Shown: piece after piece, positions 58,568 through 62,964 of the stretch
Numbering within the stretch: position 1 is the first letter of the stretch
Layout of the letters: each line of letters opens with the position of its first letter
Origin: Escherichia phage vB_EcoM_G2285
Sequence record: MK327933.1
Length of the DNA: 64,000 nucleotides
Reading direction: 5' to 3' (one strand)
The notes under the pieces: generated by a model
Seen by the model: the letters and a program-made list of their open reading frames with translations, nothing else
Told to the model about the DNA's origin: nothing
Databases searched by the model: none
Made by a program: the position numbers and the translations under genes

Positions 58568-61500
58568 ATGGCTACATTAAAACAGATACAATTTAAAAGA
58601 AGCAAAGTGGCAGGTGCACGTCCTGCTGCTTCAGTATTAGCCGAAGGTGAATTGGCTATAAACTTAAAAGATAGAACACTTTTTACTAAAGATGACCTCG
58701 GTAATATTATTAGCCTAGGCTTTGCTAAGGGCGGGGATATTAACGGTAATGTAACCCAAAATGGTGGTTATTTACAGAACGGTACATATAATCTCAATGG
58801 AAATCAGTTTGTTTATGCAGGAAAATATATTGAATTTTTACCTAAAATAGCTGGTAATGGCGCTTGGGTAAATCAACACCTAAATAAAGCTCCTATCTTT
58901 ACAGATTTAAGTTCAACTACTGCTGTTTCAGAATACCATCCGCTGATTAAACAACGCTATAAAGATGGAACTTTTTCTGCTGGCACATTAGTAAACGAAG
59001 GTAGTTTTAAATTCCATTATATTGATGAAACCGGGACTTCAAAATACTGGACTTTTAATAGAAATGGTAATTTCATCGTAGATTCTGGCAATATTGAAGT
59101 TCGTACCGGTAATATTTCTGCTTCAGGCAATATTAACTCCGCTAATGGTATTATCACCGGGCCTGAAATTGTTACCAAAAATATTAATTTCAGTACAAAA
59201 ACATTTGTCGCTAACGCCAACATCGGGTATGATTGGGTTTCTTTACCTACCTGGGTTTATAATCCGCCAGCTGATGGTTCTGATAATACTACTAACGGTT
59301 TAAACTATTTGCGTAAATTGCGTGCATCAAGTGCATCAAGTATTTTCCATGAAATTGCTGATTGTCGAAAAGGCAAGCCGCAAGAAATTTCTTGGTGGAC
59401 TGGTGTAGGTCCTTCGTCTTTCCAATGGGCGTTTGATACCTCTGGGCGTATTACCGCAGGTAAATCTATTTCAGTAGGTCTTCCTGATAACGGGGCAAAT
59501 GGACGTTATCCTTTAGATTCTGCCATTTCTATTGGTATTGCAATTGGTGATAATGACACCGGTATTAAATGGGTCCGCGACGGTGTTATTGATTTCATGG
59601 CTAACGGTATTTCATCCGCTACCATTTTGAATAACGGTATTAACAGCACTAAGAAATTGATGGTCGGTTATAGCCGCGATTCTGGTACTACTTGGGATTT
59701 TCCTAATAATAATCAGGCAATGTTTACAGCAAGAACTGATGTTGATGGAAATAATAACGGTGATGGACAAACTCATATCGGTTATAGCAGCAATGCCAAG
59801 ATGTATCACTATTTCCGTGGTACAGGTCGTATGGCTGTTGGTATGGCAGAAGGTTTAATTGTTGAGCCAGGTATTTTAGATATTAAAACTGGTTCAAATT
59901 CATTAAATTTACGTGCTGATGGAACTATTTCTTCTATTCAAAGAATTAAATTTGATAACGGGGTACTTCTTACCGGGGCTAGAGCTGACGGTATTCAACT
60001 TGATGCGCCTACATCAGTAGATGGCACTAAAACTATACTGTGGGGTGCTGGTACTCGCGCAGGTCAGAATAAAAACTATATATCTATTAAAGCGTGGGGT
60101 AATTCATTTAATGCCACTGGTGATAAATCTCGTGAAACCGTTTTTGAAGTATCAGATTCACAAGGTTACCATTTTTATTCTCAGCGAGTTGCTCCTGGTG
60201 CAGGTTCTACTGTCGGACCTATTCAATTCCGAGTTAATGGCGGTTTATTAACTTCAGGTAGTATTGTTGCTTCCGGTTCTATTACAACTGAATCTTCTTT
60301 GAGTGTTAATAATGGCATGTCAGTAAACGGCCAAGCTAAATTCGGCGGAACAGCAAACGCATTGAGAATTTGGAACGCTGAATATGGCGCTATTTTCCGT
60401 CGTTCAGAAACAGCATTGCACATTATTCCTACCCTTAAAGACCAAGGAGAAAATGGTGAAATAGGTAATCTTCGTCCATTGAGCATCGCACTTCATAACG
60501 GTATGGTACAAATGCGTCATTCTGTCACGTTAGGCGATGATGGTAGAGGTGGCAATATGATTACTGTGGACAACGATAACAAACGTGTTGTTGTTGCTAG
60601 TAATAGTCGTATTTCTCCTAATTACCGTATGCAGATAGGACATTCCGCTTATATTGATGCTGAATGTACTAATACTGTTCGACCGGCTGGTGCAGGTTCA
60701 TTTGCTTCCCAGAATAATGAAGACGTTCGTGCCCCGTTCTATATGAATATTGATAGAACAGATACAAGCGCTTATGTTCCTATTGTGAAACAAAGATACG
60801 TTCAAAATAATAGTTGTTATTCTATTGGTACTTTAATTAATGGTGGTAACTTTAGAGTTCATTATCATGAAGGTGGAGACGGTGGTTCGACTGGTGCTGT
60901 TATAAAGGATCATGGATGGGAATTTAATAAAAACGGTGATTTTTATTCTCCTGGTAAATTAGGCGCTGGTAATGTTCGTATTGGTACTGATGGTAACATC
61001 ACTGGCGGCACTGGTAATTTTGCTAACTTGAATACCACAATAAATAACCTTAAGACGGATATTGTGTCGAGTTACCCAATTGGTGCTCCGATTCCTTGGC
61101 CTACTGATACACCTCCTGACGGTTACGCTATTATGGAAGGTCAGACCTTTGATAAGTCTGCATATCCAAAGTTAGCTGTTGCATATCCTAGCGGTGTTAT
61201 TCCAGATATGCGCGGGCAAACTATCAAGGGTAAACCTAGTGGACGAGCCGTGTTAAGTGCAGAAGCTGATGGTATTAAGTCTCATAGCCATAGTGCATCT
61301 GCTTCAAGTACTGACTTAGGCACTAAAACCACATCGTCGTTTGATTACGGCACTAAAACCACGAATAACACCGGGGCGCATACGCACAGTGTGAGCGGTA
61401 CAGCCGCAAGTGCCGGAAACCATACTCATAGTGTCACAGGCGCATCAGCAGAAAGACGGTACACACCAAATGGGTCAACACATGAGGTAGTGGCTGCGGT

Positions 61501-61714
61501 CAGGGTGAATACAAGTGCTGCAGGAGCGCACACTCATAGTGTCAGCGGCACAGCTGCATCTGCAGGTGCTCACGCACATACTGTCGGTATTGGTGCTCAT
61601 ACGCACTCTGTTGCGATTGGCTCACATGGACACACCATCACCGTTAACGCTGCTGGTAACGCGGAAAACACGGTTAAAAACATTGCTTTTAACTATATCG
61701 TTCGTTTAGCATAA
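58568..61714 (+). CDS. 37: Long tail fibre distal subunit / receptor-binding protein gp37
   Basis: 1048 aa; C-terminal His-box repeats ([15 protein letters not shown]) and conserved end ...[18 protein letters not shown]. Confidence 0.95.
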
Positions 61715-61719
61715 GGAGA

Positions 61720-61739
61720 GGGGCTTCGGCCCCTTTTTA
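61720..61739 (+). terminator. Intrinsic terminator after gene 37 (GGGGC-ttcg-GCCCC plus T5)
   Basis: UUCG tetraloop hairpin and T-run directly after the gene 37 stop. Confidence 0.65.
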
Positions 61740-61743
61740 TAAT

Positions 61744-62295
61744 ATGAAACTCTATCACTATTATTTTGACACTAAAGAATTTTACAAAGAAGAAAATTAT
61801 AAACCATTAAAAGGCGTAGGATTTCCGGCTCATTCGACACCAAAAAAACCTTTAGACCCTAAAGAAGGCTATGCTGTTTTATTTGATGAACGCGAACAAG
61901 AATGGGTATATGTTGAAGACCATCGTGGAAAAACAGTATGGACTTATGATAAGCAAAAAATTGTTATTGACACTCCGGGTGCTCTTCAAAATGTTACTAC
62001 GGAAGAACCTGGTGAATTTGACATTTGGACCGACGACGGGTGGAAGGAAGATGAAGCATATAAACGCGTAGTTCAACGTGATAAGAAAATTCATGAACTC
62101 TATAAATTATTCAGTGTTTTAAGTTCTCTTATTGACGCAGAGGTTGCTAATAGAGAAGAAAAGCGAAAATTTAAAGAGCTCAAAAAATTCTTTGCCCTTT
62201 TAGAAAAACACGAACATCTTGGCGGTGAATTCCCTAAATTCCCTGACCTTGAAAACAAATCTATTGTCAAAACGATTATAAATATCTTTAAGTAA
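61744..62295 (+). CDS. 38: Tail fibre assembly chaperone gp38 (T4-type)
   Basis: 183 aa; matches remembered T4 gp38 (MKLYHYYFDTKEFYKEENYKP...). Confidence 0.85.
   Translation: MKLYHYYFDTKEFYKEENYKPLKGVGFPAHSTPKKPLDPKEGYAVLFDEREQEWVYVEDHRGKTVWTYDKQKIVIDTPGALQNVTTEEPGEFDIWTDDGWKEDEAYKRVVQRDKKIHELYKLFSVLSSLIDAEVANREEKRKFKELKKFFALLEKHEHLGGEFPKFPDLENKSIVKTIINIFK
62277..62284 (+). promoter_or_regulatory. Late promoter TATAAATA upstream of holin gene t
   Basis: Exact TATAAATA inside the gene 38 3' end, 21 nt before the t ATG. Confidence 0.5.
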
Positions 62296-62304
62296 GGAGG
62301 TATT

Positions 62305-62964
62305 ATGGCAACACCAAAAGTATCATTTTCGCCTAGTGATATTCTATTTGGGTTGCTAGATCGTATTTTCAAAGATAACGCTACTGGAAAGGTTTTAATG
62401 TCCCGAGTAGCGGTAATTATTCTTTTGTTCCTAATGGCACTAATATGGTACAAAGGAAGTATTTTGCTGGATTATTATGTAAGAGCTAAGTATGATACTT
62501 ATACTGAAATAATCCAAAAAGAACGAGCTTTACGTTTTGAATCTGCGGCTCTAGAACAACTGCAAATAGTTCATATCTCATCTGGTGCAGATTTTAGTGC
62601 TGTGTATTCTTTCAGACCTAAAAACTTAAATTATTTTGTCGACCTTATAGCTTATGAAGGCAAACTACCTAGCACAATTTCTGAAAAGTCCCTTGGCGGA
62701 TTCCCAGTGGATAAAACGGCCAATGAATATATAATTCATTTAAGTGGCCGTCATTTCTCATCTAAATCTGAATTTGCATTTTTGCCTACAAAATCTAAGA
62801 CTGCCGAACTTTCTTATATGTATAGTTGTCCATACTTTAATTTGGATAACATCTATGCCGGAACTGTGACGATGTATTGGTATAAGGGGAGTAATATACT
62901 TGAGGAAGATCGCTTAGCGGCTATATGCAACCAAGCGATCCGAATACTAGGAAGGGCTAAATAA
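62305..62964 (+). CDS. t: Holin T
   Basis: 219 aa; single transmembrane segment and large periplasmic domain; matches remembered T4 T holin. Confidence 0.9.
   Translation: MATPKVSFSPSDILFGLLDRIFKDNATGKVLMSRVAVIILLFLMALIWYKGSILLDYYVRAKYDTYTEIIQKERALRFESAALEQLQIVHISSGADFSAVYSFRPKNLNYFVDLIAYEGKLPSTISEKSLGGFPVDKTANEYIIHLSGRHFSSKSEFAFLPTKSKTAELSYMYSCPYFNLDNIYAGTVTMYWYKGSNILEEDRLAAICNQAIRILGRAK

Follow-up and report, generated by a model that had tools for sequence, protein, structure and literature searches.

The distal tips of the long tail fibre protein gp37 of T4 and of the side tail fibre protein Stf of lambda belong to one family of receptor-binding proteins, in which the last ~215 amino acids (aa) are exchangeable and variation is centred on T4 residues 932–965, the region of T4 gp37 that determines receptor specificity (Magaziner and Salmond, 2022, PMC9659904). 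In T4, mutations abolishing recognition of OmpC or lipopolysaccharide (LPS) map to gp37 residues 938–955 (PMC5221442), and the seven di-histidine motifs of the protein coordinate Fe along the needle (PMC12609058). According to Montag 1989, as cited in PMC9659904, the tips of Stf and gp37 can replace one another in function, as can lambda Tfa and T4 gp38. The gp37 C-termini of Escherichia phage vB_EcoM_G2285 (hereafter G2285) and of seven other isolates have 7–9 HxH motifs and resemble the 2XGF needle by HHpred, according to the available passages of Korf et al. (2019, PMC6563267). The HxH needle of exactly the gp37 considered here is thus already published; the same passages contain no mention of a mosaic, of a donor pool or of features of the apex. 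Here we describe the 3' end of gene 37 of this phage, located in a stretch of 64,000 nucleotides (nt) from record MK327933.1 that is referred to as the window. It is probable that its T4-type tip is a nested recombinant, consisting of a Tequatrovirus collar, a needle and head recently derived from a prophage stf gene, and a T-even 3' end, combined with the phage's own gp38, and the apex of the head may have been retuned.

Gene 37 (58568..61714; like gene 38 and the features described within and between them, on the + strand) is an open reading frame (ORF) of 1048 aa encoding the distal half of the long tail fibre (phrog_1699, 'long tail fiber protein distal subunit', E=5e-259). Residues 809–1048 align end to end with the T4 tip structure 2XGF (chain positions 2–242 of 2xgf_A, E=6.4e-104), which spans residues 785–1026 of the 1026-aa T4 protein, and by homology residues ~809–1048 are a T4-type receptor-binding tip and not a chance resemblance. 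The aligned tip has 240 aa, compared to 241 aa in T4. As it is one residue shorter, the 22 extra residues of this gp37 must lie upstream of it. Pfam recognises a Collar domain at 61082..61225 (residues 839–886; PF07484, E=2.6e-11, 43.7 bits compared to a cut-off of 24), which is aligned to the collar of 2XGF, and also finds Phage_fiber (PF03335) in gp37. A preliminary description of this DNA, made from its letters only, had proposed a metal-coordinating receptor-binding tip, and both the structure alignment and Pfam bear this out. Seven HxH motifs are found at 61283–61291 (motif 1, residue 906), 61379..61387 (motif 2, H938-T-H940), 61421–61429 (motif 3, residue 952), 61529–61537 (motif 4, residue 988), 61571–61579 (motif 5, residue 1002), 61598–61606 (motif 6, residue 1011), and 61625–61633 (motif 7, residue 1020). 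Each is aligned to a T4 motif, and the seven occur in the same order in T4 gp37, in this gp37 and in lambdoid Stf. The preliminary description had listed four His-box repeats, which are all present but do not make up the total of seven. It was right that T4 gp37 is the shorter protein and that the stretches between the His boxes are unlike those of T4, but not that the number of boxes differs, as there are seven in each, aligned one to one. The strings that it quoted from the end of gp37 were all recovered; the start that it gave to this region, 61080, is out of frame, with codons beginning at 61079 and 61082, and the final 210 codons occupy 61082–61711.

The GTKTT motif (61319..61375, residues 918–936) is built on a 30-nt direct repeat unit, with copies at 61312–61332 and 61342–61362 that are visible as DNA repeats, and the DNA units of the His boxes are spaced 42 and 27 nt apart. 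At the protein level a 15-residue His-box string occurs twice (residues 936–950 and 986–1000) and a 24-residue one occupies residues 1000–1023, followed by the conserved C-terminal end (residues 1031–1048), the extreme C-terminus being kept in every family member aligned. The head, or apex, segment (61430..61528, residues 955–987) lies between HxH motifs 3 and 4 and is the positional equivalent of the T4 specificity region. It has 33 aa compared to 34 aa in T4, has no alignable similarity to the T4 head, and is the most variable part of the tip, with a column entropy of 2.46 bits against 0.57–0.88 elsewhere in 41 family members. By analogy with 2XGF the tip would be trimeric, its collar followed by a needle of six strands that is held by seven HxH metal sites and ends in a small head at the apex. 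Three chains would build the collar, ascend the needle via HxH motifs 1–3, fold into the head and descend via HxH motifs 4–7, with one metal ion per HxH layer, and the head would, judging from 2XGF and the T4 literature, contact the host receptor.

At the DNA level the tip is a mosaic, resolved here by 40-nt sliding-window identity followed by base-level alignments. Along the 3' end the best match switches from HX01 and a20 to F26, T4 and N2, then to prophage stf (98–100%), and then to T4-type sequence. G2285 is a Mosigvirus, and the backbone of the window is ~98% identical to Mosigvirus genomes. The first segment (A; examined over 60955..61119) is Mosigvirus-like, with 95–100% nt identity to HX01 and a20, and enters the collar before it ends at 61119. 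A crossover within 61112–61119 leads to segment B (61120..61324), which is Tequatrovirus-like (95–100% identical to F26, T4 and N2, compared to 70–88% for Mosigvirus and 57–75% for stf) and carries most of the collar, HxH motif 1 and the start of the GTKTT motif. Segment C (61325..61671) is a patch of 347 nt resembling stf of lambdoid prophages. It differs at 15 nt from stf of E. coli 2014C-3061 (L010) and of phage 2H10, while T-even phages are only ~50–80% identical to it in 40-nt windows, and the part of the tip that it encodes comprises the ascending needle and the head as well as most of the descending needle, with HxH motifs 2–7. Segment D (61672..~61740), which comprises the 3' end of gene 37 and an intergenic hairpin, is Tequatrovirus-like again and 100% identical to T4, F26 and N2; it departs from stf at 61672, 61675, 61684, 61687 and further positions downstream, and is set apart from Mosigvirus by 61672, 61682 and the hairpin. 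Finally, at ~61736–61741 the sequence switches to segment E (from ~61741), which is Mosigvirus-like and includes gp38. Informative sites place the two crossovers of the stf patch within 61325–61335 (11 nt), inside the first GTKTT repeat unit, and within 61664–61671 (8 nt), inside the conserved box that codes for NAENTVKN. The gp37 ORF is intact and in frame throughout, and T-even sequence resumes before the stop codon.

Two of the reference genes deserve a comment. Gene 37 of Tequatrovirus N2 (ON645936.1; 1466–4668 of the extracted locus), the collar DNA of which is 95–100% identical to that of the window, is recorded as a misc_feature 'similar to tail fiber protein' with internal stops near its 3' end, and is either frameshifted or affected by a sequencing error. 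The Mosigvirus gp37 genes of HX01, a20 and phi25-307, together with that of P0162 (see below), have one extra 30-nt GTKTT-type unit at 61330 that the window lacks, and the copy number of the 30-nt repeat therefore varies between alleles.

The stf allele from which the patch appears to be derived is abundant. In a tblastn search of the phage collection the best matches to the last 210 aa of gp37 were lambdoid Stf proteins (PhiR29_1/2, 2H10, and SPF_0923; 88–89%), compared to 75.8% for the best T-even and 71.6% for T4. At the nt level the match is 93% to these lambdoid phages and 94% to ~750 E. coli genomes over 362–375 nt, the divergent apex included. The allele is present in ~750 of 5,426 complete E. 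coli genomes (~14%), always in a J-lom-stf-tfa context. The patch is absent from all T-evens of the phage collection, and megablast of the gp37 3' ends of the T-evens GiZh and BYEP01, included as controls, gave no match among the 5,426 E. coli genomes. Over the ~290 nt of needle that flank the apex the window differs from stf at a single nt (61358), a nonsynonymous change of Ser to Thr that creates the second exact GTKTT. The stfR gene of the K-12 Rac prophage was considered as a donor and rejected, because its head is longer and unrelated and its needle shows numerous synonymous changes. As stfR differs this much, the similarity reflects one particular stf allele as donor and not generic conservation.

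Differences between patch and donor are confined almost entirely to the apex: 14 of the 15 fall in 61452–61504 (53 nt; binomial p=5e-11). These 14 changes replace 11 of 19 residues (the prophage version being VSQWSQNGSVHKVVSAASV) and all 14 are nonsynonymous (pN, the proportion of nonsynonymous sites changed, 0.316, compared to 0.035 for the synonymous equivalent pS; Fisher p=0.01). The resulting apex, named ERRY, has one known relative, a second ERRY allele in the gp37 protein P0162 of a T-even contig of 168.8 kb (JAJNDP010000004.1) in E. coli assembly GCA_021650345.1 (L015). This contig is a complete-looking Mosigvirus-like T-even genome that is filed under E. coli, with its gp37 named 'phage tail protein [Escherichia coli]'. 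Compared to the window, P0162 has 7 nt differences in 225 nt, which are all nonsynonymous, are all located at the apex and change six apex residues. In P0162 the resemblance to stf extends over a shorter stretch (window positions 61376–61601) between HX01-like flanks, and the protein has an additional His box and three GTKTT units. Every substitution distinguishing the three known alleles falls in a hypervariable block at 61436..61507 (residues 957–980), where the comparisons of the window with the prophage (14) and with P0162 (7) give 21 substitutions, none of which is synonymous, between flanks that are identical. Judged from the alleles, this pattern is what would be expected as the signature of selection for altered receptor contact. 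Mutagenesis by a diversity-generating retroelement was rejected as its source, as the substitutions are not specific to adenine; of the 14 sites concerned, only 3 have A in stf and 6 have A in the window. No second copy of the apex was found in 61050–61720.

Most probably the stf patch entered a T-even gene 37 recently, by double crossover or gene conversion, with crossovers in short conserved motifs, on the left in the GTKTT repeat and on the right in the NAENTVKN box. The phage would have kept its T-even 3' end and its gp38, and after or around the transfer apex residues 957–980 would have changed only by substitutions that alter an amino acid. A more specific version, in which a virulent T-even took needle and head directly from a resident lambdoid prophage, kept its chaperone and then underwent a purely amino-acid-changing burst at the apex, is given somewhat less than an even chance.

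There are several points that weigh against the recombinant origin as outlined. First, the stf patch may have entered a Tequatrovirus-type gene 37 before it reached Mosigvirus within segments B–D. Second, the probability attached to the lack of synonymous changes at the apex (P ~0.0009) comes from three alleles and a simple equal-rates model. Third, base composition is less telling than it appears. The GC content of segment C is 53.3%, in the part of the 64-kb window that is richest in GC (mean 38.1, sd 3.2), where only one overlapping 347-nt window (start 61326, 53.6%) reaches this value, and the GC content of the segment at third codon positions (GC3) is 42%, equal to that of stf, compared to 24% in the rest of gp37; however, the equivalent region of T4 already has 46.8% GC and a GC3 of 37%, and because that region is itself GC-enriched the GC argument, weak alone, is taken as supporting evidence. 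Fourth, a monomer AlphaFold2 prediction of the last 240 aa from a 41-sequence alignment was uninterpretable (predicted local distance difference test 53.7; predicted template modelling score 0.19). The gp37 tip is predicted to be an intertwined trimer, to which a monomer prediction is poorly suited. Fifth, the ERRY apex may have been imported ready-made, possibly twice, from a rare and unsampled prophage stf allele.

This last possibility is the strongest of the alternatives, although we regard it as unlikely. The patch boundaries differ between the two phages, 61325–61671 here and 61376–61601 in the second T-even assembly, as separate imports would predict, but the narrower patch of the latter is simply explained by later recombination between T-evens. 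Similarly, a full-length Stf with the ERRY apex could have been missed by the protein search with a short query. The 149-aa C-terminal query returned only proteins of up to 261 aa and missed full-length gp37s, while the full-length query recovered P0121, the annotated gp37 of G2285, together with P0162, and negative protein searches made with short fragments in a word-indexed tool are to be read with caution. On the other hand, the ERRY apex was not found in the 5,426 complete E. coli genomes, the closest match among them reaching 89.3% over 121 nt. Neither the back-translated 14-residue apex pattern nor the 24-nt word common to the apices of the window and P0162 had any other carrier in the viral, genome and metagenome contig collections, and the exact 37-nt apex DNA was not found in the viral contigs. 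If the apex had nevertheless been imported, the selection signal would be relocated outside the T-evens, not removed, and the transfer itself would stand.

A transfer in the reverse direction, by which the module arose in T-evens and spread into lambdoid prophages, is improbable. The gp37/Stf tip family is common to many phage types (PMC9659904), and identity by itself carries no direction. Yet the module is continuous with stf-specific flanks in ~750 E. coli genomes and 5 lambdoid phages, the only T-even genomes to carry it are two, with T-even flanks and different junctions, and the patch has the GC3 of stf and not that of the remainder of gp37. All of this suggests that the patch moved from prophage to T-even, and its close similarity to present-day stf would make the event a recent one.

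That host prophage stf reads were merged into the phage contig during assembly is very hard to sustain. Lysates do contain host DNA, and homology in the flanks could mislead an assembler, but the apex is 14 nt away from every prophage allele in the 5,426 genomes and its DNA is shared with an independent T-even assembly that has different junctions. An uninterrupted reading frame and the return of T-even sequence ahead of the stop codon argue in the same direction. An engineered or bred phage was likewise rejected as the origin, as G2285 is a manure isolate (PMC11657129) and the breeding paper (PMC8614997) deals with other phages. Equally remote is a tip that merely diverged within the T-evens, with His boxes differing from T4 in number and sequence and thereby explaining the longer protein: gp37 is indeed 22 aa longer than in T4, with unlike sequence between the His boxes, but the T4 alignment and the HxH count already refute an altered repeat number, the extra length lies upstream of the tip, and the needle DNA is 98–100% identical to prophage stf compared to only ~50–80% for T-evens.

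With a nested recombinant tip as the preferred reading, the question of receptor specificity arises. It is likely, and a fair conclusion from the alignment, that the specificity differs from that of T4, because the sequence at the specificity-determining position is unlike that of T4. Similarly, the changes that distinguish the apex from prophage stf may have altered specificity further. Ur-lambda Stf and T4 gp37 both use OmpC (PMC12617516), and by analogy an outer-membrane porin and/or the LPS core is proposed as the default candidate for the receptor. A search of the literature for the receptor of Stf of the PhiR29/2H10 type found no experimental data.

The needle of stf type was apparently acquired without the chaperone that accompanies it in prophages. 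Gene 38 (61744..62295) encodes a chaperone for tail-fibre assembly that belongs to the T4 kind and is of Mosigvirus type (183 aa; PF02413; phrog_105, 'tail fiber assembly') that is 98.4% identical to gp38 of a20 and phi25-307 and only 34–35% identical to Tfa of PhiR29_2, 2H10 and an E. coli prophage. These relationships indicate that gene 38 was not co-transferred with the stf patch. The identity to T4 gp38 is 65.6% over the full 183 aa, in agreement with the earlier assignment of gp38 as a chaperone of T4 type and not an adhesin of T2 type. Folding of the foreign needle is presumably the task of the phage's own gp38, a plausible role given that Tfa and gp38, and the tips of Stf and gp37, have been reported to be interchangeable, and one that fits the conservation of the extreme C-terminus throughout the family. 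Between the stop codon of gene 37 and the ATG of gene 38 there is a GC-rich hairpin with a UUCG loop (61715..61738; −16 kcal/mol, z=−2.9). The hairpin, GGAGAGGGGC-UUCG-GCCCCUUUUU, pairs with the only GGAG upstream of gene 38; its stem is of Tequatrovirus type and the bases after the stem are of Mosigvirus type. In T4 a hairpin brings a distant Shine-Dalgarno sequence near the start codon of gene 38.

The surroundings of the tip are those of an ordinary T-even phage. The locus order gp34-gp35-gp36-gp37-gp38-t, deduced from the ORF list and Pfam (gp36 being PF03903), and the genes around gp37, i.e., gp34–38, t and asiA, form the standard T-even set, with the T holin (PF11031) at 62305–62964 after gene 38. 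A search with the full-length protein found gp37 to be 100% identical to P0121 (1048 aa), while an exact look-up of contigs encoding either sequence gave no record. Further upstream in the fibre, gp37 residues 488–653 (~60029–60526) match solved structures of the proximal fibre protein gp34 (4UXE and 5NXF; E ~4e-14), which indicates that gp34 and gp37 have a rod module in common. On the prophage side, a pin-type invertase/recombinase gene (pinR/pinQ) on the opposite strand follows stf-tfa in 2H10, in two E. coli prophages and in K-12 Rac, and beyond it a ydfK/ynaE cold-shock-like gene is found in the loci that reach that far (L010 and L012). The SPF_0923 record (ON032529.1; 4933–7633 of the extracted locus) runs from stf-tfa straight into the sitABCD manganese/iron transporter genes and probably includes chromosomal DNA flanking the prophage.

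Exchange of gp37/Stf tips has become a tool for re-targeting phages and delivery particles derived from them, and the present locus offers a natural example. Its donor allele remains abundant, the crossovers are confined to 8–11 nt, the chaperone is kept and the later changes are concentrated in ~24 apex residues. For engineering it suggests at which points a splice into a T-even fibre can be accepted and which residues might be altered to change specificity, and that a Mosigvirus gp38 can presumably fold a needle of Stf type. If prophage capture followed by a burst of change at the apex did take place, G2285 and its one relative would form a datable before/after pair from which the speed of tip retuning could be estimated, and the E. 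coli prophage pool would be a live reservoir of host-range modules for lytic phages.

Compared to known systems, the tip is most like that of T4 in architecture. The two have the same collar-needle-head layout with HxH motifs in one-to-one correspondence, ~72% identity over the last 210 aa, a conserved C-terminus, the same locus order and a chaperone-type gp38 of 183 aa directly downstream. They differ in that the needle DNA here is of prophage stf type and not of T-even type, and in that the heads are unalignable, the T4 residues in contact with OmpC/LPS (938–955) having no counterparts here. With the lambdoid Stf proteins of 2H10, PhiR29_1/2 and SPF_0923, which are relatives of Ur-lambda Stf, it shares a nearly identical 61325–61671, the same His boxes, the same head length and 8 of 19 apex residues. 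In contrast to them, the sequence upstream of 61325 is T-even gp37, where Pfam detects no N-terminal domain of prophage tail fibres, substitutions affect 11 apex residues, T-even sequence makes up the last 43 nt, and the neighbours are gp36 and gp38, not J-lom-stf-tfa, with gp38 in the place of Tfa downstream. P0162 has the same combination of an stf-type core and the rare ERRY apex, but in a narrower patch with HX01-like flanks and an extra His box. The distal fibre of T2 is organised differently: gp38 of T2 is a virion-bound adhesin with glycine-rich motifs that is unrelated to T4 gp38, whereas the gp38 of G2285 is a homologue of T4 gp38, and the HxH needle and head are part of gp37 itself. 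Exchange of gp37/Stf tips has been known since ~1989–1992, and the locus is a clear example of it, involving no new mechanism or fold. The laboratory T4-lambda hybrid fibres of Montag, Schwarz and Henning (1989), as cited in later work, involve the same exchangeable distal module. In comparison with these hybrids, G2285 is a natural isolate in which the junctions are mapped to 8–11 nt, the chaperone was not exchanged, and the patch flanks are essentially identical to those of present-day prophages. The new detail is thus a precisely mapped and apparently recent patch, passed from a prophage to a virulent phage, with an apex that would seem to be under strong diversifying selection.

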